Both the position numbers and the translations under genes were made by a program. From positions 1 to 64,000 of IMG/VR virus record IMGVR_UViG_3300014613_000017: 64,000 bases of DNA, one strand, 5' to 3'. The notes beneath the pieces are model-generated. The model was not told the DNA's origin, ran no database searches, and was given only the letters and a program-made list of their open reading frames with translations. Positions 48 to 58,528 of this stretch are shown here, piece after piece. Every line of letters begins with the position of its first letter. The first letter of the stretch is position 1. This DNA is from a virus.

Positions 48-1523
48 TCATTTGAATTGCAGCCTTATCTTGACTTCATCCCATTTACTTCTTTCCCACA
101 CAATTTTCTCAAACACATTTTCATAAAAGAATTTGAGTTGTTTTTCGTCTTCTCCATGTTCTATTTCATGAATAATTTTTTCGATGATATTTAATGAAAG
201 ATTGTTTGGTGAGTCAATCTGAGAAAGCTTTGCTTTTTCTTTTTTAATTAGCTTTTGAAATTCAGTAATTTCATTTTGCCTATGTCTTGTTCTTTCCATC
301 GCTTTCTCAACATTGTACATTCCAGCTTCAAAAGCCTCTTCTATTTTTGCAATTGCGATTTCAGTCTTCTTAATTTCTTTTTCAAGTCTTTCAATTTCAT
401 TTCTTATCTCTATAGACTTGTCCTCTTTAGCTTCAAAAACATCACCTTTTTCAAGCTGCTTTCTCAAACTTTGTAGCGATGTTAAAATGGAGTCCTCAAC
501 TATTTCTAAAAGACCTCCTCTGTTTTCGTTGCAGTTGGTACATCTGTAAACCGTTTTTACTCCACTGTCTTTTCTTATTCTCATTGCACCATCGCACTTT
601 GAGCATTTGATTAAAGAGCCTAATGCGTTAATGGTCTTTTTCCCAGTGGTATGACGCTTATTTTTAATTTCTAAAACTCGATTTAATTCTTCTTCAGTCA
701 TGATTGATTCATGTGTATTTAAAGTTACACTCCACTCATCATCAGGCTTCAGAGTTCCTTTTTTGTCTCTTCTATTGTAGTATGTGTGACCTAAATATGT
801 CCTATTTGTTAATGCATAGAGGATTGATTTCACATTCCATTCATGACCTTTATTCGTCATTATTTTTAATGCTTTCAAATTATCTTGAATTGACAAACTC
901 GACATTCCCGATAAATATGGCTCAAGAATATGTGTTCTAAAAATCCTCTTCTGTTCATCAATTATGGATAGCTTCTTAAGCTCCTTGTTGATTTCATATC
1001 CATAGGGTGCATACCCACTTGCCCAATGTCCCATTTTTAAACTTATCTTCTTTCCTGCTATTAGGCGTTTCCGTATCATCTTATACTCATATCTAGCCAT
1101 AAATCCTTTTATATCCATCAAGTTTTCATCACGTTCATTATTAGGGTCTAATACATTAAACGGATTTGCTTCTATAACTAAAGTGTCTGAGTTTTTAAAT
1201 GTAAGGAATATTTGATCTTGATCTCCACCGCTACCTCGACCTAACCTGTCATAGTCGTACACAAATACGGCATCATACATCTCATCTTCAATATCCTTAA
1301 GCAACTCCTGCATTTTTGGTCTGTTTTTTATATTTTCACCAGACACAATTTCAGCATATTCGATAAAGTTCCAGTCATGTTGCTTGCAGAATTCTGTGAT
1401 TACATTGCGATGTCTGCTTAAATCGTCATCGCTCTCCCCCCTAGACTTCCTTAAGTAGACAGCAATATTTTTTATGAAGTCTAATATATTTGATTCTTTA
1501 TAATCATGAGCGACCATTTTCAT
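48..1523 (-). CDS. large serine recombinase (phage integrase, SprA-like role)
   Basis: YLRKS catalytic Ser motif, DRLGR motif, recombinase domain, CxxC..CxxC zinc ribbon, coiled coil. Confidence 0.93.
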   Translation of the reverse strand: MKMVAHDYKESNILDFIKNIAVYLRKSRGESDDDLSRHRNVITEFCKQHDWNFIEYAEIVSGENIKNRPKMQELLKDIEDEMYDAVFVYDYDRLGRGSGGDQDQIFLTFKNSDTLVIEANPFNVLDPNNERDENLMDIKGFMARYEYKMIRKRLIAGKKISLKMGHWASGYAPYGYEINKELKKLSIIDEQKRIFRTHILEPYLSGMSSLSIQDNLKALKIMTNKGHEWNVKSILYALTNRTYLGHTYYNRRDKKGTLKPDDEWSVTLNTHESIMTEEELNRVLEIKNKRHTTGKKTINALGSLIKCSKCDGAMRIRKDSGVKTVYRCTNCNENRGGLLEIVEDSILTSLQSLRKQLEKGDVFEAKEDKSIEIRNEIERLEKEIKKTEIAIAKIEEAFEAGMYNVEKAMERTRHRQNEITEFQKLIKKEKAKLSQIDSPNNLSLNIIEKIIHEIEHGEDEKQLKFFYENVFEKIVWERSKWDEVKIRLQFK

Positions 1524-9835: not shown

Positions 9836-9945
9836 ATAAAATTTCTCCTTTGCATTATAATTTATTATTTAAAACGCCTAATAAAACTTAACTTTTAACC
9901 CCACTACATCACGTCCACATCCCTTCATAGCAACTAAATTACATT

Positions 9946-21760: not shown

Positions 21761-22011
21761 ATTGTGCCTCCTTTTTAATTATAATTTATTATTTAAAACA
21801 TCCAATAAAAGAGTTGTTTTATTAGGTAATTATTTCACACTTTATTAAAAGTGACGAAAACACTGAAAAACTAGGCTACGAACGCTGATATAGCAAGGTT
21901 TGTGAGCGTCATATTATGAAACTTGTGTAAATGCTGTATTTTAGCTGATTTACACGTTACCAATAAAAACTGTATTTTATTTGATCTTTAATACACAATA
22001 AAAAGTTTATT

Positions 22012-37670: not shown

Positions 37671-37700
37671 ATTATAATTTACTATTATATAAGATGTCAA
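37671..37700 (-). promoter_or_regulatory. sigmaA promoter flanked by two TTATAATTTA motifs
   Basis: TTGACA-18-TATAAT. Confidence 0.6.
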
Positions 37701-37743
37701 CAGTTATAATTTATTTATTTTCAATTCAAATAAAAATCCTCTT

Positions 37744-47970: not shown

Positions 47971-48084
47971 TTGGAAGATGCATTCAAAGTTTTGTCCATT
48001 GCTGTAGTTGCTTCTGTAGTTGTGGTTTTTACTATTTATATGACTGTTAATATTTTTTGTTATCACTTAGGTATGTGCTATTAA
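47971..48084 (+). CDS. single-TM peptide, 37 aa (MEDAFKVLSIAVVASVVVVFTIYMTVNIFCYHLGMCY)
   Basis: Read by eye; GGCGGTGA RBS; TTG start. Confidence 0.6.
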   Translation: MEDAFKVLSIAVVASVVVVFTIYMTVNIFCYHLGMCY

Positions 48085-48094
48085 AAGATGCTTT

Positions 48095-48466
48095 TTAATT
48101 GATGTTGCTTAACGCTTGTCGTGCAATTTTTCCTGCATCAATGCTAACTGTTGTATTCTCACCATCCACTAACAGATTGTTTTCTTCATCTGCATAAAAC
48201 TTCAACGCTTCACGTAGACGGTCAATTTCAGCATCTTTTCTTTCGAGGTTATCTTGATGTGCATTTGCTACTATTACACGTGTTTCTCGCAAAGTGTCAA
48301 CGTTTTTTTGTAACCCTTTTATGTTGCTTTGGAGATAATCAATGCCTATTTCCAACTCTTCCACACGTTCAGCTTGTTCGATAAGCCACCTAATATCTAG
48401 GTGAAGGTATTTCATTGTGCCAAAGCCTTGAGTTTTAATTTGTTCTAGACGTTCCTTATCTGTCAT
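48095..48466 (-). CDS. coiled-coil hypothetical protein
   Basis: WLIEQAERVEELE...ALKFYAD. Confidence 0.75.
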   Translation of the reverse strand: MTDKERLEQIKTQGFGTMKYLHLDIRWLIEQAERVEELEIGIDYLQSNIKGLQKNVDTLRETRVIVANAHQDNLERKDAEIDRLREALKFYADEENNLLVDGENTTVSIDAGKIARQALSNIN

Positions 48467-50668: not shown

Positions 50669-51667
50669 TTACTTAATCAAATCATATCCATATAAATTTT
50701 TAAATAACTCTGTCTTAAGTAGCAGCTTAATTACATTTGTATTTCTGTTTTCATATTTATCAACCTTCGTCATAGCTGTGTCAAACTGATCTCCAATGAT
50801 TTTTAAATGCTCTGGCTTAAATTCTCCATCTCTGTTATAGAGTTCATTAGCCATGTGCATCATACCTGATACTTGAATGTCTTTTGATTTCAAAAATTTA
50901 AGATCAAATACTTCTTTATAAATTACGAACTTTCGATTGATATAAAATAAGTCTAATTTTCCTTCTTGTTTTCCTCTTGTTGTTTTCTTGAATATAAATT
51001 CTGAATCTAATAGTTTGCTGGTACTTTGTCTGTCACTTACTGTATTTCCATTTTTATTAACATATTCAGTTTCTTTATCTGTTTTATGAAGTAAATCAAA
51101 TAGTGTTTCTGAAATCTCGATTGTGCGGAATGATCCATCTTTTTGATATAGCGTAGCTAAAAATTTTCCATCTTCCTCTTTTAAGTCCTGTGTGCGTAAG
51201 TTAAGGATTTCTGAAAACCCTTCTCCACTAATTCCCTCAAACAAAGCTAATAACACTGCTCTATCACCATAATTGATTAAATCCTCTAGTCTGTGTAAAA
51301 GCTGCTTTCTTGTAAATGCTGACTGCTTATATTTAGCTACAAACTGTTTAGACCACTCTAATTTATTAACGTTTGATAATGGATTCAGGTTGCTTTCTAC
51401 ATGCCCATTCTCATAAGCCCAATCAATATATTGTTCAAACTTAACTGCGTGATTATAAGCTGTATTAGCTGATGATACAGATAGTGATTTCATTACTTCT
51501 CCTAATTCATCAATCGACATATCGAACATATCTTTTCCAAATAGTTCTTCAGTTTTCTTAGCTGTTATAAAAGGATATGCATATAATTTACGTGTCTCAT
51601 TATGTTGGATTGTATTTAGATAATCAATTTTAATATCTCCATTATAAAAGTTTTCTTTATTTAACAT
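50669..51667 (-). CDS. mrpR: MrpR/YopR/SroF-like master repressor (inactive tyrosine-recombinase fold)
   Basis: NY..RAVL.ALFEG.SG...SE.L.L pattern; catalytic Arg absent; position after the YopQ-like gene. Confidence 0.8.
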   Translation of the reverse strand: MLNKENFYNGDIKIDYLNTIQHNETRKLYAYPFITAKKTEELFGKDMFDMSIDELGEVMKSLSVSSANTAYNHAVKFEQYIDWAYENGHVESNLNPLSNVNKLEWSKQFVAKYKQSAFTRKQLLHRLEDLINYGDRAVLLALFEGISGEGFSEILNLRTQDLKEEDGKFLATLYQKDGSFRTIEISETLFDLLHKTDKETEYVNKNGNTVSDRQSTSKLLDSEFIFKKTTRGKQEGKLDLFYINRKFVIYKEVFDLKFLKSKDIQVSGMMHMANELYNRDGEFKPEHLKIIGDQFDTAMTKVDKYENRNTNVIKLLLKTELFKNLYGYDLIK

Positions 51668-51745: not shown

Positions 51746-53071
51746 TTAAATTAAACCTCTAAAGTATTTACTTATTCTTGATTCATCAATTTGATTATTA
51801 ATTTTACCATCTAATCTAATTATGCCTAGCTCTTTCCATAAAGGATTATCTATTTTAAAGTCTACTTTATCAAGGATTGATTTTAATTTTTCAAATTCTA
51901 AATTTTGTTTTTTCATTTCTGCTGCTAATCCAATATATCCTGCAAACAATTTGTTATAAGCCATAATTGATTCATTCTGATTTCTTGTTGATAAAAATTC
52001 GTCTGGATATAATCCAATCAGATACTCAAAGAATGTTGTTAGATACTGTCCAGTTTGTCTTGCTTCAAGTAATGACTTCATTGGAAACTCTCTGTCAATT
52101 GAATCTGCTAAAACTCTGTAGCTCACTAATTCTCCTGCTGTTATATTCATTCTTGAGCCTGTAGTTGTAACTCGATCACGCAACTCTGATTCTGATTTCA
52201 AAATTTGAACTACTGTATCTGCCAACCTGTTTTTTTCTAGCTCTTGAATACGTGCTGTAGGAATTGGTGTAGCCTTAGCTAACTGTGCTTGATACTGTTG
52301 AGCCTGTGCTGTAGTGTAGTTTGATATCATTACAACAAATCGGAAATCTAAGTCTGGATTTTCTGCATATGCTTGTTGAGATGCTAAACATCTATGGTAT
52401 CCATCAAGAATATCTAATCGTGTTCCTTCATTGATTGTAAGCACATTTTTCTTTCCATTGTATGATAGCTCTTCTCCATTGTCGCTAGTCTGTGTAGCAG
52501 CATTGAAGGCTAATGTCGTGTGTATTAACTGATCCTTTTTAAGCAACTCTTTAATTTCTTTTACGTTTTTCTTATAAATTGTTGGTTTAAATAACATTTT
52601 ATCCTTGCGAACAACTCTTGTTGCTTGTCGTTGAATCTCATAGTTATAATTTAGCTTTTTGGATTTCATTAACTGAGCAATCGTTTTGATGTCCAGTGAA
52701 GCAACATATAAGTTGTTTCCAATGTGGATCACGTTTTCAATTTCTAGTGGGAAAACAATATCATCTTCACCATGTACAAACATGTAATCGAATTGTCTTG
52801 CTTCTTTCATTTCAGCTTCAGTAAACCAATTATTAGGTGCAAATTCTTTTAATCCTGTTTTGACATAAAACTGTTCACTGAAGAGTGCTAACTCTCTTAT
52901 ATCTGCATCTTCTAATACTTCAGGCTGTGAAAAGTAATCCTCCACTCTTCCTTCTGTAATTCTATACTTTGATAACTCTTCCTTAATTTCTGATACTGCT
53001 TTTTTATTTGTAGAGATATATTGAATATTATCTTCAATTTTCTCTAAAAGTTCAGCTCGATTTTTGCTCAT
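51746..53071 (-). CDS. YopQ/SroE-like DndB (DGQHR)-family protein
   Basis: ILDGYHR motif; synteny. Confidence 0.8.
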   Translation of the reverse strand: MSKNRAELLEKIEDNIQYISTNKKAVSEIKEELSKYRITEGRVEDYFSQPEVLEDADIRELALFSEQFYVKTGLKEFAPNNWFTEAEMKEARQFDYMFVHGEDDIVFPLEIENVIHIGNNLYVASLDIKTIAQLMKSKKLNYNYEIQRQATRVVRKDKMLFKPTIYKKNVKEIKELLKKDQLIHTTLAFNAATQTSDNGEELSYNGKKNVLTINEGTRLDILDGYHRCLASQQAYAENPDLDFRFVVMISNYTTAQAQQYQAQLAKATPIPTARIQELEKNRLADTVVQILKSESELRDRVTTTGSRMNITAGELVSYRVLADSIDREFPMKSLLEARQTGQYLTTFFEYLIGLYPDEFLSTRNQNESIMAYNKLFAGYIGLAAEMKKQNLEFEKLKSILDKVDFKIDNPLWKELGIIRLDGKINNQIDESRISKYFRGLI

Positions 53072-53213
53072 CTGTTATGCTCCTTTTCCATTTTTTGTTT
53101 AATTTGATTATATAATAGCATTTTCTGTTTGTAAAAATCTAGTAGTAAAGTTTGTTGTCTTTACACTTACTTTATCATATTATGTCGTTTTATGTCGATA
53201 ACTTTATTTAATT

Positions 53214-54221
53214 TCATTCTTTATTATCTTGTAATTTTAGATTTAAAACGAACAACATCTCTTTAGACATACCCTTTAAAGCATCCAGTAAACATTCATG
53301 TGATACTTCTTTGTATAAATTATGATTTAAATTTCCTTCTAATGAATAATAACCTGTCATTTTCACTTCTTCTTCTTGTAGATATAGCTGCGTTGTAGCA
53401 AGATGCTTATGCTTACCTTTCTTCTGTGCATCTGTTATTGATCCTGTCAGTCTGTATGTGTTGGTTACTGCTGTCTTCTTAAATGAATGGAATGTGTAAT
53501 TTCTGTCCTCATGGTGTAGCTGTTTCTTAAGTCTCAACATCATGTCAGTCAGATTCTTTTTAGTTAATGTAAATACATTGCTTTGTCCTTCTACTTTAAG
53601 CTGCAATAATTCATTGTAGAAATCTCTACTGATTACCTCTAAATACTTTACATCTCCTTTACCAAACCCTGATACATAAACTTTTTCACCATCTGGTTTA
53701 AATTGCTTCCACTCTAATTCACGTAATTCTGATTCACGTAAACCTGTTTCAATGGCTGTTTTGATTATAAGTTGTTTTTCTAAATGCTTATTCTTTTCAA
53801 ATCTTATAGCTTCAAGATATTGTTCTACAACTTCCATTGGCATTGCTTCATAGCTGTTTGCATTGTTCTTTAGTGTGTCGATTAGTTCAAAGAAAGTTAA
53901 GTCTGATTTGATTGCCTTAGTAGCATTTAGATACTTATACATTGATTTAACACTACTTGCGTAACGATTGATGGTACTGTTAGATTGCTTGTCATAAAAG
54001 CTATTCAAGAAAGTCTTAAATGAATCATAGTCCAGCAACTCTAATTCTTCTGCTGTTATAGTGTTAATTGATTTATTATATACATCTGATAAGAAACGAG
54101 TAATGTCTCCTCTATATCCTTTAGTTGTATCTGCTGATCGCTTACCTTTTTCATAAAGAAAATCCTCAATTGCTTTTCCTGCTCTTGTTGTAAAGTCTGT
54201 TACTACTGCTAAATTCGTCAT
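53214..54221 (-). CDS. tyrosine recombinase (YopP-like)
   Basis: SAM-like N-terminal domain, TGLRESE, GKG, HSFKK, KH...TT..Y. Confidence 0.88.
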   Translation of the reverse strand: MTNLAVVTDFTTRAGKAIEDFLYEKGKRSADTTKGYRGDITRFLSDVYNKSINTITAEELELLDYDSFKTFLNSFYDKQSNSTINRYASSVKSMYKYLNATKAIKSDLTFFELIDTLKNNANSYEAMPMEVVEQYLEAIRFEKNKHLEKQLIIKTAIETGLRESELRELEWKQFKPDGEKVYVSGFGKGDVKYLEVISRDFYNELLQLKVEGQSNVFTLTKKNLTDMMLRLKKQLHHEDRNYTFHSFKKTAVTNTYRLTGSITDAQKKGKHKHLATTQLYLQEEEVKMTGYYSLEGNLNHNLYKEVSHECLLDALKGMSKEMLFVLNLKLQDNKE

Positions 54222-54394
54222 CTTCCTCTTCCTTTCAGCGTTATTTTTCTTGTTCTGTTATACACTATATGCGTTTACCTTATTGTTTATTAATGGGGGT
54301 TCAAGATTAGAGATAAAAATACAATGGTTTATTTAAGTTATGGCTTGTATTCTTATCACCAAGCTCGAAAGGGACAGTCAATTGTTTATTCTTT

Positions 54395-54469
54395 CTAAAC
54401 ATTGTTCTTTCCTGTATTGCCTCTTTCCTTGTTGATAATAGTATAACCTTTTTGAGAAGTTTTAAACAT
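54395..54469 (-). CDS. mini-ORF, 24 aa (MFKTSQKGYTIINKERGNTGKNNV)
   Basis: AAGGAG RBS; read by eye. Confidence 0.35.
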   Translation of the reverse strand: MFKTSQKGYTIINKERGNTGKNNV

Positions 54470-54616
54470 ATTAACTCTCCTTTTTTATAATTTATTATTT
54501 AAATTAGTTTTCATCTCCTTTTGAGTTGAGCTTCCTATCCGTCTTCTATTGCTATTATAACACTTATCTTTTCCTTTTGCACGTTTAAACCCTCCAATCT
54601 GATAATAATTTATAAT

Positions 54617-54808: not shown

Positions 54809-55035
54809 TGTGACATCTCCTTTGAAATGTTATTTGATACTATTCCTTTTTGCTTCTTTTCTAATCTCATTCATTTTAAAGTGCATACAATCCTTATGTC
54901 CTCTGAATGTCTTGCCATACAAAGAAATGATTATAGGCTCTCTACATTTATAAATACATATGTCGCAACCATCATGTCTAAGTCCCCAATCAAATTTATC
55001 CATTTGATCCTCTCCTTCCTTTTAAAATACGCTTT

Positions 55036-55254
55036 TTATTGTGTCTTGTTTACCATTGTAGAAACAAGATTTCCAAACAAATTTTGAGTGCTTTGGAATT
55101 GATTATTGATTCTGTCTTCATGTGCTTGAAGTTTTTCTTTCAATGCTCTGTTTTCTCTTTCTAGCTTACGTTTCTTAGAAATTGTATCTGCGATAACCAA
55201 TGCCATTTCATAGACAGTATCTTCATCAATTATTAATTCATCATAATTTCTCAT
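55036..55254 (-). CDS. coiled-coil hypothetical cassette protein
   Basis: Between palindromes 55023 and 55287. Confidence 0.7.
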   Translation of the reverse strand: MRNYDELIIDEDTVYEMALVIADTISKKRKLERENRALKEKLQAHEDRINNQFQSTQNLFGNLVSTMVNKTQ

Positions 55255-55505
55255 TTTTCAATCTCTCCATTTCATATTTTATTTACTAAAATCCTGATTT
55301 TAATTGAATAAATCCCAAACATATTTTTCCCCTTCTGTTTTGCAATCTTTGTTTCTTCTTTTGTTTCTTACTCTAACATTCCGATTCCTCTGCCACATAA
55401 AAAACAATATATTTATAACAACTACTACAACTGATCCTATAAGAAGTCCAATAACTATTCCAATTACCCATCCCAATTTAATTAGCTCCTCTCTTATAAC
55501 TTACC

Positions 55506-56311: not shown

Positions 56312-56659
56312 CTATTTCATTTCTTTCTTAATCTCCATAACAATTTGTTTGACTGTTGATTCAACTTGATTCTTAACAAACTCATTCATACGCAATTCAA
56401 CTTTTTCTTTGAGTTTTTGCTCAAATTTGATGTCAATTAAATGTGAGCCTGTTTTATTAAATTCTCTTCCTAGTAGAAAGTCTGTGCTTACATTGAAGAA
56501 ATCTGCAATCCTGACTAGCATCTCTAGATTGGGTTCTCTGACACCATTTTCATAGCCAGAGATAGTGGATTCAGCAACCTTAAAATAAGTTGCCAGCTCT
56601 TTTTGTGTTAGTTTATTTCTTTTCCTCAAGTGAATCAAGGTCTCTGCTAGTTTTGTCAT
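56312..56659 (-). CDS. Xre-family HTH regulator
   Basis: LTQKELA...ESTISGYENG.REP...IADFF.VSTDFLLGR. Confidence 0.9.
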   Translation of the reverse strand: MTKLAETLIHLRKRNKLTQKELATYFKVAESTISGYENGVREPNLEMLVRIADFFNVSTDFLLGREFNKTGSHLIDIKFEQKLKEKVELRMNEFVKNQVESTVKQIVMEIKKEMK

Positions 56660-56695
56660 TTTTCTCACCCCTATCCACAGTAGTTTATATAAATT

Positions 56696-57061
56696 CTATT
56701 TAACGGTGGTATTTTTATAAGCTTCTCTTATAATCGCTTCTGAAATCCTTTCTCTGTGATCCGAAATGAAACTTTCAATAACCTGCTCTGTAACCTTTTT
56801 AATGTTTAATTCAACTTGTTTTTCGTTCATAATTTTAAAAATATCTTTATTATCTATTGTCTTACTTCTTCCTACAAGATCATCAAGTGACACTTCAAAC
56901 AAATCAGCTAACTGAACTAATCTTGTTAACGTTGGCTCTGCATTGGACAATTCATACTTTGTGTATGCAGCTCTTGTTAAGCTTAGATAGTCAGCAACCT
57001 GTTCTTGACTAAGCTCTTTATGCTTTCTAAGTTGTTTTAAGTTTGTTGCAAAATTAATCAT
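56696..57061 (-). CDS. Xre-family HTH regulator
   Basis: LSQEQVA...RAAYTKYE...EP...LADLF.VSLDDLVGR. Confidence 0.9.
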   Translation of the reverse strand: MINFATNLKQLRKHKELSQEQVADYLSLTRAAYTKYELSNAEPTLTRLVQLADLFEVSLDDLVGRSKTIDNKDIFKIMNEKQVELNIKKVTEQVIESFISDHRERISEAIIREAYKNTTVK

Positions 57062-58274: not shown

Positions 58275-58487
58275 TCATTTTTTAAATCTTTCTAGTATCT
58301 CCTGTTGAAGACTGACTACGTATAATTCCGTGCTGTCTGAGTTTTTTCCTAGTTCACCTGATTTACATGTTAACCTCAATTTATACCAATACTCTAAAAG
58401 CTCTTCATTTGTAAATTCGTGAAAAGCTTTATTTCTCCACTCCTCAACTTTAAAACCAATTCTTAATGACATTTTCATCTTCTCCAT
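58275..58487 (-). CDS. hypothetical protein
   Basis: Compact ORF. Confidence 0.6.
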   Translation of the reverse strand: MEKMKMSLRIGFKVEEWRNKAFHEFTNEELLEYWYKLRLTCKSGELGKNSDSTELYVVSLQQEILERFKK

Positions 58488-58528
58488 TCATAATTTATTA
58501 TTTTGTCTTACCTTTTAAAAGATAGATT

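Follow-up and report, generated by a model that had tools for sequence, protein, structure and literature searches.

Cre and Flp only recombine lox or FRT sites with identical spacers. Within the SPbeta-like phages, Brady et al. are said to have described SroD, the YopP protein, as an auxiliary repressor in 2023. The yopP gene is an SPbeta-like core gene whose transcription in the lysogen was found by microarray (10.1101/2021.11.22.469490), and the sroDEF genes are used as a signature of SPbeta-like phages (10.1101/2025.11.23.689978). MrpR does not recombine and binds SPBRE, an element which differs from TAAAA-N6-TTTTA, and its Tyr matters for DNA binding (PMC10516654); judging from the phi3T repeats, SPBRE probably corresponds to the direct repeat AGAATAAAAATAAAAT. 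In its site, XerH recognises the innermost 5 bp of either arm and barely contacts the 6-bp centre (PMC5241119).

The locus described here is contained in the first 64,000 nucleotides (the window) of the 127-kb viral genome IMGVR_UViG_3300014613_000017, which shows a yopP-yopQ-mrpR module and the following associated features:

53214..54221, minus strand: yopP-like ORF of 335 aa with ATG start, encoding a YopP/SroD-like tyrosine recombinase
51746..53071, minus strand: second module gene, encoding a YopQ/SroE-like DndB/ParB-type protein (PF14072; phrog_5732 at 1e-110)
50669..51667, minus strand: gene encoding an MrpR/YopR/SroF-like master repressor (PF22822 and PF22823), with a recombinase fold lacking Arg I
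53107..53135, minus strand: promoter-like site TTTACA-17-TATAAT (11/12) between yopP and yopQ, a consensus match only
54222..54616, minus strand: non-coding leader of 395 bp upstream of yopP
56312..57061: two XRE-type HTH genes
48..1523, minus strand: gene encoding a large serine recombinase (Pfam Resolvase, Recombinase and Zn_ribbon_recom; tblastn match to the phi3T end gene)
96694-97677 of the whole genome (G000), past the window: gene encoding a YomM-like canonical recombinase, with the full R-K-H-R-H-Y set and a strong PF00589 score
118.6-119.6 kb, past the window: split tyrosine recombinase

The gene yopP is the first of the conserved module, and the order yopP-yopQ-mrpR (sroD-sroE-sroF) is the same in phi3T, E3, Staph SPbeta-like and Perkons, as well as in all six close relatives. 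The YopQ/SroE-like protein shows tblastn matches to phi3T_96, E3 gp147 and Staph gp012, and none in Izhevsk. Since Izhevsk has the TAAAA-N6-TTTTA motif described below, YopQ/SroE was rejected as a universal binder of these sites. The MrpR-like protein matches the solved YopR/MrpR/SroF chains (PDB 9rd5, 8bj6 and 8a0a) with E values from 1e-22 to 1e-29 and, as had been claimed earlier, has lost the catalytic Arg, with GISGEGFSE at the Arg I position. No pairwise similarity between the YopP-like and MrpR-like proteins was found by BLASTP. A promoter scan of the module region found consensus matches no commoner than in shuffles. A gap of 250-390 bp is present at the position of the leader in most close relatives; further upstream, this genome contains small ORFs unrelated to those of phi3T and SPbeta, and the two XRE regulators. 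YopP homologues without adjoining yopQ or mrpR are found in the virulent lactococcal 949-type phages and in the Tsamsa-like phages, which show the homologue adjoining a replication-relaxase gene (nicking replication initiator), and in Sundance YopP is beside ParA and a helicase. In the module the context of YopP is lysogeny control, in which it may have a role, and, because the homologues of the 949-type and Tsamsa-like phages stand alone, this distribution suggests a function beyond lysogeny.

The ORF at 53214..54221, which the earlier note had read as a tyrosine recombinase, is present, and its Pfam and PHROG matches agree with that reading. Its product matches PF00589 (Phage_integrase) over residues 130-283 with 43.5 bits (cut-off 27.1), the N-terminal SAM-like domain PF02899 in the Pfam search, and PHROG 1 (integrase). 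It is 29-30% identical to phi3T_95 and SPbeta YopP, with tblastn E values from 1e-13 to 1e-17, and a search in SPbeta, Goe11 and SPbetaL8 gave an E value of about 6e-26 at 30% identity. Even the closest phage proteins share just 33% identity with it, and megablast of the 50-56 kb region against phage records gave no match. The protein contains a core-binding domain (residues ~13-113), a catalytic domain (~129-283) and a helical tail of ~50 residues past the Tyr, and its AF2 model (pLDDT 87) shows a two-domain fold, helical core-binding plus catalytic. The top Foldseek match of this model is XerH bound to difH (E 1e-10), followed by Tn1549 Int, XerA, Cre and lambda Int, and the probability is 1.00 for XerH, Tn1549 Int, Cre and lambda Int over ~300 columns. 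As judged from these matches and the gene order, the product is a YopP/SroD orthologue of a SPbeta-like temperate phage and belongs, as a divergent protein, to the known YopP/SroD family.

The catalytic residues named in the earlier note (R, K, H, a Lys at the Arg II position, H and Tyr) were all recovered by alignment with XerA and a codon check, and an alignment of 52 homologues, from 27 to 96% identical, gives their conservation:

53736..53738, minus strand: codon of Arg I, R162 (GLRESE), invariant in 52/52 homologues and aligned with XerA Arg I
53658..53660, minus strand: codon of the beta-hairpin Lys, K188 (GKG), K in 51/52 and aligned with XerA GKGD
53478..53489, minus strand: H245-S-F-K248 (HSFKK), with His II (H245, codon 53487-53489) and the Lys at the Arg II position (K248, codon 53478-53480)
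53409..53411, minus strand: codon of His III, H271, invariant in 52/52 homologues
53382..53384, minus strand: codon of the nucleophile Tyr, Y280, invariant in 52/52 homologues and in five phage homologues

The seventh core residue, E165, is also present and is E or D in 50/52 homologues. Only 12 of the 335 columns are invariant, R162, H245, H271 and Y280 among them, and the full catalytic set is kept by all five phage homologues compared. A protein acting only as a repressor would have no need of H, H and Y. Six of the seven catalytic positions of the YopP-like protein are canonical, the exception being K248; this position is K in 48 homologues and R in four, and shows R in phi3T and E3, and K in Staph SPbeta-like, phiL47 and Izhevsk. 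Lys at Arg II occurs naturally in a few members of the tyrosine recombinase family. [quoted passage not shown] Because Cre R292K is active, Lys at Arg II would be compatible with catalysis in the YopP-like protein, and it is expected to slow religation. The conservation of the pocket (R-E-K-H-K/R-H-Y) indicates that it is under strong purifying selection, and from it we infer catalytic competence. A complete active site over so wide a divergence, virulent phages included, speaks for SroD as an enzyme rather than a mere repressor accessory.

The YopP-like protein was called an orphan tyrosine recombinase earlier, which is too strong, as the same 127-kb genome contains two further tyrosine recombinases past the window end, the YomM-like and the split one. 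The YomM-like protein is 43-51% identical to those of the Tsamsa-like, FADO and 949 phages, far better conserved than YopP, and is encoded by one of just 10 ORFs common to all five motif-rich genomes; a close orthologue of it (43-44% identity) is encoded by phiL47 and the 949 phages. The serine recombinase claimed at 48..1523 has its Resolvase, Recombinase and Zn_ribbon_recom domains in place, and it is presumed to be the integrase, of SprA/YokA type.

The description of the genome as full of palindromes with 6-bp spacers holds: TAAAA-N6-TTTTA has 35 copies in the window versus 0.77 expected, a number reached in none of 100 shuffles, and 44 copies in the 127-kb genome, in which the other arm spacings from 3 to 9 give 0-3. 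The motif is also enriched in phi3T, SPbeta, Goe11, E3, the Tsamsa-like phages and FADO. In five unrelated Firmicutes phages (SPO1, phi105, A511, K and LP65) both the motif and YopP are absent, and since not one copy is found in SPO1 or phi105, which are B. subtilis phages, a host-factor or general Firmicutes origin of the sites was rejected. The sites are 16-bp palindromes with perfect arms and without a longer conserved flank, and those around yopP are as follows:

55023..55038: nearest upstream site, coding-strand spacer AGCGTA, directly before the Shine-Dalgarno (SD) sequence of gene 54830..55003
55287..55302: site with coding-strand spacer TCAGGA, shared with relative L208, in which the adjacent flanks are unrelated
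48082..48097: nearest downstream site, coding-strand spacer AGCATC, common to relative L038

The sites at 55023 and 55287 bracket gene 55036..55254, and L038, which does not have this gene, shows one degenerate site there. The TAA of 15 sites serves as stop codon for the preceding gene, about half of the sites have an SD 0-3 nt after them, and some adjoin the -35 box of a repeated promoter.

New in the present analysis is that the spacers are unique per genome and recur in the same order among related phages. Spacers never repeat within a genome (12 genomes or stretches), and identical spacers between genomes number 36 versus 1.0 expected, their orientation and order always being alike; spacers matching at five of six bases number 26 versus 16 expected, barely above chance. 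Of the 36 identical-spacer pairs, 19 lack any homology in the 500 bp on both sides. The same pattern is found in phi3T, SPbeta and Goe11, with 72 identical-spacer pairs, of which 24 have site-adjacent homology on just one side and 20 have none on either. The spacer is ~95% identical per base though both flanks are replaced. A limited repertoire of permitted spacers was rejected, since it would give duplicates within genomes and these were 0 in 480 plus 1557 within-genome pairs. Homology-block ends fall at sites 17-20 times versus 14-16 expected, and are not clearly commoner there than at other gene junctions. Crossover mapping in the lab hybrids Hyb1 and Hyb3 is mostly uninformative, the parents being identical over kilobases, and the one sharp phi3T x SPbeta crossover is away from any site. 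The spacer pattern fits sites that would recombine only if their partner has the same spacer, as is the case for tyrosine recombinases; the sites look like recombination sites addressed by the identity of the spacer, and the population pattern seems hard to explain except by exchange dependent on spacer identity.

None of the motif-rich phages examined is without a YopP homologue, a co-occurrence which is not an independent test, the motif-rich phages having been sampled through YopP. About a third of the YopP-bearing phages have no motif: Sundance, G011, G014 and G016 have none, and phiL47/949 almost none. MrpR-like proteins and a second strong recombinase co-occur with the motif as well as YopP does, and when the phylogenetic profiles of YopP, the MrpR-like and the YomM-like proteins were set against the presence of the motif, none of them stood out. 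A scan of viral contigs for AATAAAA-N6-TTTTATT gave, among the matches listed, single chance matches and no motif-rich genomes independent of YopP. The enzyme-site pair proposed in the earlier note is upheld in part, by the XerH-like layout and the recombination-like behaviour of the sites, and weakened by the absence of the motif from some YopP phages and by two rival enzymes. By layout and population pattern, the TAAAA-N6-TTTTA sites are plausible candidate targets of YopP, which is just one of three candidate enzymes for them in the genome; any YopP link to the sites is one that we infer.

The reading favoured here is that the YopP/SroD orthologue, encoded by the first gene of the lysogeny module and with its catalytic pocket whole, probably binds a specific DNA site and is able to form a 3'-phosphotyrosine link, because the pocket is kept, unlike that of MrpR. 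That YopP in addition recombines the TAAAA-N6-TTTTA sites, with same-spacer exchange between related phages or prophages, we hold to be quite unlikely. Two monomers would bind the inverted TAAAA arms and swap strands across the 6-bp centre, the unique spacer of each site would allow exchange only with the same-spacer site of a related phage or prophage, and module swaps would keep gene order because of this limit. A layout equal to that of XerH-difH (inner 5 bp read, 6-bp centre uncontacted), the single arm spacing, the 36 shared spacers without within-genome duplicates, their counterpart in phi3T, SPbeta and Goe11, the one-gene indel bracketed exactly by two sites, and the joint presence of YopP and motif in all motif-rich phages examined, with joint absence from the five controls, argue for this role. 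Against it are the other two tyrosine recombinases, of which the YomM-like one is fully canonical and better conserved, the motif-free or nearly motif-free YopP phages, the block ends at sites about as often as at any gene junction, and the off-site laboratory crossover. A dimer of an XRE-type HTH protein, such as the two genes at 56312..57061 encode, could equally bind the palindrome, as 434-type operators also show 4-5 bp arms with N6, and the SD adjoining many sites would suit a regulatory role too. The sites might instead be recombined by the YomM-like or the split recombinase, with YopP doing another job, for example the resolution of replication or plasmid-like multimers, a view that we regard as distinctly doubtful. 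The complete R-K-H-R-H-Y set and strong PF00589 score of the YomM-like protein, its place among the 10 common ORFs, and the location of YopP beside the nicking initiator in Tsamsa-like phages and beside ParA and helicase in Sundance favour it, but the 949 phages and phiL47 have a YomM orthologue and essentially no motif, and G012 contains 11 strict sites with no detectable YomM orthologue, only another recombinase.

Two further alternatives dispense with recombination by YopP. In line with the non-catalytic role in lysogeny that the earlier note also allowed for, YopP could be a purely DNA-binding auxiliary repressor, the pocket of which clamps an operator phosphate uncleaved, with the sites belonging to another protein or to none; this is somewhat unlikely. 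Its place in a repressor operon, the frequent Lys at Arg II and the auxiliary repressor role that SroD is said to have agree with it. The MrpR neighbour shows that the fold can act as a repressor and that the Tyr may count for binding alone (PMC10516654). However, the seven catalytic positions of YopP are held over 27-96% identity, also in virulent phages without a lysogeny module, whereas MrpR, the proven repressor, has lost four of the seven. The sites could also act in regulation, as operators of a protein or as RNA stems by the SD, and travel with gene junctions; the shared spacers would then come from common descent and from illegitimate or short-homology recombination at gene borders. 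This account, which we likewise think improbable on balance, is in line with the stop codons, SD and -35 boxes at the sites and with block ends not enriched there relative to other junctions. It gives no cause for ~95% per-base identity of an uncontacted spacer with replaced flanks, or for spacers never repeating within a genome, and a 5-bp A-U stem is probably too weak for a structural RNA element.

As a very tentative proposal, SPbeta-like and related large siphoviruses would carry 30-44 addressed sites, and YopP/SroD or YomM would swap modules at sites with the same address. The exchange would take place between a resident prophage and an incoming relative, with YopP/SroD expressed from the lysogeny module. 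If true, ordered mosaicism would be driven without scrambling the genome, and if a phage tyrosine recombinase does the exchange, there would be dedicated ordered module shuffling in a model group (SPbeta, phi3T).

Compared with known systems, SroD/YopP of phi3T and SPbeta is alike in module position, two-domain fold, approximate length (356 aa versus 335 aa) and presence of all catalytic residues, and differs in its 29-30% identity and, for phi3T SroD, in an Arg instead of Lys at Arg II. MrpR/YopR/SroF shares the fold family and the operon with YopP and is conserved in the same phages, but it has lost Arg I, His II, Arg II and His III, whereas the set is complete in YopP. XerH-difH of Helicobacter pylori (PDB 5jjv and 5jk0) is the best fold match and has the same site layout as TAAAA-N6-TTTTA, with only 16-18% sequence identity between XerH and the YopP-like protein. 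Xer resolves dimers at one chromosomal dif site under control of FtsK or an equivalent, whereas here 30-44 sites per phage genome have their own spacers and no FtsK-type control is evident. A role as Xer chromosome-dimer resolvase was rejected, this being a phage gene with 44 candidate sites per genome, and the likeness is one of fold and layout. IntI of integrons, another tyrosine recombinase, likewise has its sites between single genes without promoters, and VchIntIA is among the Foldseek matches (rank 46). Integron attC sites, in contrast, are long, imperfectly palindromic and recombined in folded single-stranded form, with cassettes in any order at one attI, and the phage sites are 16-bp perfect-arm palindromes in conserved order on both sides of yopP, so that an IntI role was rejected. 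The cassette analogy of the earlier note breaks down in its details for the same reason, these being fixed-order duplex palindromes, whereas folded attC hairpins are added at a single attI. The heterospecific lox and FRT sites of Cre and Flp have the same arms and differing spacers, as the phage sites do, and the rule that only identical spacers recombine would account for spacers unique within genomes and shared between them. We know of no natural genome-wide set of 30-44 addressed sites described before; heterospecific lox and FRT sites are engineered variants of a single natural site, whereas the phage set is natural.

The window, the first half of a full viral record of 127,183 bp, contains the yopP-like gene, the two genes downstream of it and a serine recombinase gene:

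48..1523, - strand, large serine recombinase
50669..51667, - strand, MrpR-like protein with PF22822 and PF22823, downstream of yopP
51746..53071, - strand, DndB/ParB-like protein (YopQ/SroE), downstream of yopP
53214..54221, - strand, YopP-like ORF of 335 aa with an ATG start

The YopP-like ORF matches PF00589 (Phage_integrase) of Pfam at 43.5 bits, with a cut-off of 27.1, and also an N-terminal SAM-like domain of Pfam and PHROG 1 'integrase'; published work assigns YopP a XerC-type integrase domain. In phi3T the order yopP-yopQ-mrpR appears as phi3T_95/96/97, whose annotations liken them to yopP, yopQ and yopR of SPbeta; it recurs in Geobacillus virus E3, in Staphylococcus phage SPbeta-like, in Psychrobacillus phage Perkons and in six of six close metagenomic relatives, whose surrounding small genes are otherwise very different. 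Since this order is conserved and the protein shows 29-30% identity to YopP of phi3T and SPbeta, the gene is a divergent orthologue and adds a new member to the known YopP/SroD family; the label "YopP-like" of an earlier note is appropriate. That note also placed a large serine recombinase at 48..1523, which was borne out, and held that the MrpR neighbour had lost its catalytic Arg; this protein matches solved YopR/MrpR/SroF chains (E 1e-22 to 1e-29) and indeed has GISGEGFSE at the Arg I place. SroD is said to have been described by Brady et al. in 2023 as an auxiliary repressor. The yopP gene belongs to the core genome of SPbeta-like phages, and its transcript was seen in a lysogen in microarray data and not in two RNA-seq sets (10.1101/2021.11.22.469490). 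For these phages, sroDEF is the signature used (10.1101/2025.11.23.689978). Upstream of yopP there is a non-coding stretch of 395 bp (54222-54616), and most close relatives show a gap of 250-390 bp there. In the Tsamsa-like phages Izhevsk, vB_BcoS-136 and FADO, the YopP homologue is away from yopQ/mrpR and adjoins a relaxase-type 'replication initiation by nicking' gene and an HNH gene; the Sundance homologue adjoins a RecD-type helicase gene, with a ParA-like gene nearby.

Catalytic residues were placed by phmmer alignment to archaeal XerA, and every codon was then verified in the DNA. Arg I is R162 (within TGLRESE), K188 lies within GKGD, HSFKK contains H245 as His II and K248 as a Lys at the Arg II position, and H271 and Y280 lie within GKHKHLATTQLY; the earlier reading of these six residues was thus right. 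E165 is the seventh residue of the core set of the tyrosine recombinase family (PMC10516654). Conservation was measured over 52 aligned homologues (27-96% identity) from a database search. Twelve of the 335 columns are invariant, R162, H245, H271 and Y280 among them; position 188 is K in 51 homologues, position 165 is E or D in 50, and at position 248, 48 have K and the other four R. The same catalytic set is also kept in phage homologues, whose Arg II residue is R for phi3T and E3; for Staphylococcus phage SPbeta-like, Lactococcus phiL47 and the Bacillus phage Izhevsk it is K. A toggle between R and K at 248, with the rest unchanged, is a sign of a functional pocket, which is clearly under selection; in MrpR, a proven repressor with the same fold, four of the seven core residues are lost (PMC10516654). 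[quoted passage not shown] The AlphaFold model (pLDDT 87) is a standard two-domain recombinase, with XerH-difH as the best structural match (E 1e-10); next come Tn1549 Int, XerA, Cre, lambda Int and VchIntIA.

The window contains 35 copies of the palindrome TAAAA-N6-TTTTA, where 0.77 would be expected, and the whole genome contains 44; spacings other than N6 show 0-3 copies, so the genome is full of 6-bp-spacer palindromes, as had been claimed. N6-specific enrichment is shared by nine phages: phi3T and E3 (30 copies each), SPbeta and Goe11 (34 each), Izhevsk (22) and Staphylococcus phage SPbeta-like (17), and, for the stricter ATAAAA-N6-TTTTAT, FADO (30), vB_BcoS-136 (14) and Perkons (9). The stricter pattern is also enriched in several IMG/VR contigs, and when every 5-mer palindrome was scanned at every spacing, without bias, the motif ranked first for enrichment in each motif-rich genome. 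It is absent from the unrelated Firmicutes phages SPO1, phi105 and A511; phages K and LP65 contain four copies each, with a reversed-pattern control of four in K and zero in LP65. A YopP homologue was found in none of these five phages. Sites are placed between co-directional small genes; 15 of them supply, with their TAA, the stop codon for the gene upstream, about half are followed by a Shine-Dalgarno sequence after 0-3 nt, and a few adjoin the -35 box of a promoter that recurs in the genome. On the coding (-) strand, a promoter-like block, TTGGATGTTTTAAATAATAAATTATAAT, lies directly after sites 9882, 21806, 37731 and 58516:

9850-9881, - strand, TTGGATGTTTTAAATAATAAATTATAAT-form block
21775-21805, - strand, the same form
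37700-37730, - strand, the same form
58485-58515, - strand, the same form

This block may be the early promoter of the phage or its SPBRE equivalent. TAAAA-N6-TTTTA is distinct from the MrpR operator. In phi3T (KY030782.1), the direct repeat AGAATAAAAATAAAAT lies at 68775-68790 and 70531-70546, shortly before the -35 boxes of the promoters of aimR and sroA (phi3T_92), and has about 30-40 copies on one strand. This position fits the published SPBRE, which has 15 bp and is placed before the promoter (PMC10516654), and MrpR/SroF probably binds AGAATAAAAATAAAAT as its SPBRE.

Spacers, the central 6 bp of the sites, were compared in seven related stretches around yopP (the window and the metagenomic relatives L038, L039 and L207-L210), which contain 83 sites with 58 distinct spacers. 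No spacer is duplicated within any of the seven; between genomes, 36 pairs share an identical spacer where about one would be expected, all with the same orientation and the same order relative to yopPQR. The window sites lie within 9882-58531. When 500-bp flanks were compared by blastn (word size 7) and tblastx, homology was present on neither side in 19 pairs, on one side only in 12 and on both sides in five; the flanking ORFs are unlike in length and sequence. Matches at five of six spacer positions (26 against 16 expected) are barely above chance, which implies that shared spacers are about 95% identical per base; nearby conserved genes are 70-82% identical and the immediate site flanks are unalignable. 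A comparison of phi3T, SPbeta and Goe11 gave 72 identical-spacer pairs and zero duplicates within a genome, with adjacent flanks homologous on both sides in 28, on one in 24 and on neither in 20. A 72-aa gene (55036-55254, - strand), bracketed by sites 55023 and 55287, is missing from L038, whose YopP is 96% identical, and at exactly this place L038 has one degenerate site, TAAAA TCAGGT TTCTA, between the same flanks.

Spacer variants of Cre/lox and Flp/FRT are the basis for expecting that spacers must match, and identical arms, a must-match spacer, uniqueness within the genome and fixed orientation are together what would be expected of tyrosine recombinase sites. A comparison of the motif with integron cassette junctions is not borne out in detail. 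The position of many sites, beside a Shine-Dalgarno sequence or -35 box, would equally fit a regulatory protein; 434-type operators share short arms with N6, and two XRE genes are nearby. In phi3T, SPbeta and Goe11, 17-20 of about 140 homology-block ends fall on sites, with 14-16 expected for random gene junctions and about two for random positions; block ends thus meet sites about as often as any gene junction, and mosaic breakpoints mainly lie elsewhere. Of the crossover intervals in phi3T x SPbeta hybrids evolved in the laboratory, a minority can be resolved, and one sharp switch has no site.

If the sites are recombined, the enzyme need not be YopP, since two further PF00589 proteins are encoded beyond the window, in the full record (G000) and its later stretches L211 and L212:

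G000 96694-97677 (L211:1195-2178), + strand, YomM-like tyrosine recombinase, PF00589 at 76 bits
G000 118557-119042 (L212:1058-1543), + strand, core-binding ORF (161 aa) of a third tyrosine recombinase
G000 119061-119552 (L212:1562-2053), + strand, catalytic ORF (163 aa) of the third, PF00589 at 117 bits

The YomM-like protein, an equal rival of YopP, shows the full R-K-H-R-H-Y set, is the orthologue of SPbeta yomM and phi3T_29, and is located among late genes; orthologues in Tsamsa-like, FADO and lactococcal 949-type phages share 43-51% identity with it, and the literature searched yielded no paper on yomM. The third recombinase, adjoined by a Replic_Relax gene on the opposite strand, may be either a broken gene or a true split one. 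All motif-rich genomes that were examined encode a YopP homologue, and no motif-rich relative without one was met, but these genomes were found through YopP; moreover, YopP-bearing Sundance and the IMG/VR contigs G011, G014 and G016 have no sites, phiL47/949 almost none, and almost all related genomes, with or without the motif, contain an MrpR-like protein and a strong second recombinase. YopQ/SroE is an unlikely universal partner of the motif because motif-bearing Izhevsk lacks it. The enzyme-site pair proposed earlier is therefore plausible and strengthened by the behaviour of the sites, but it does not single out YopP, which we regard as a rather improbable enzyme. In its favour are a XerH-like fold and the site layout: XerH reads the inner 5 bp of each difH arm and barely touches the 6-bp centre (PMC5241119), and these 5-bp arms around a 6-bp centre are the layout of TAAAA-N6-TTTTA.
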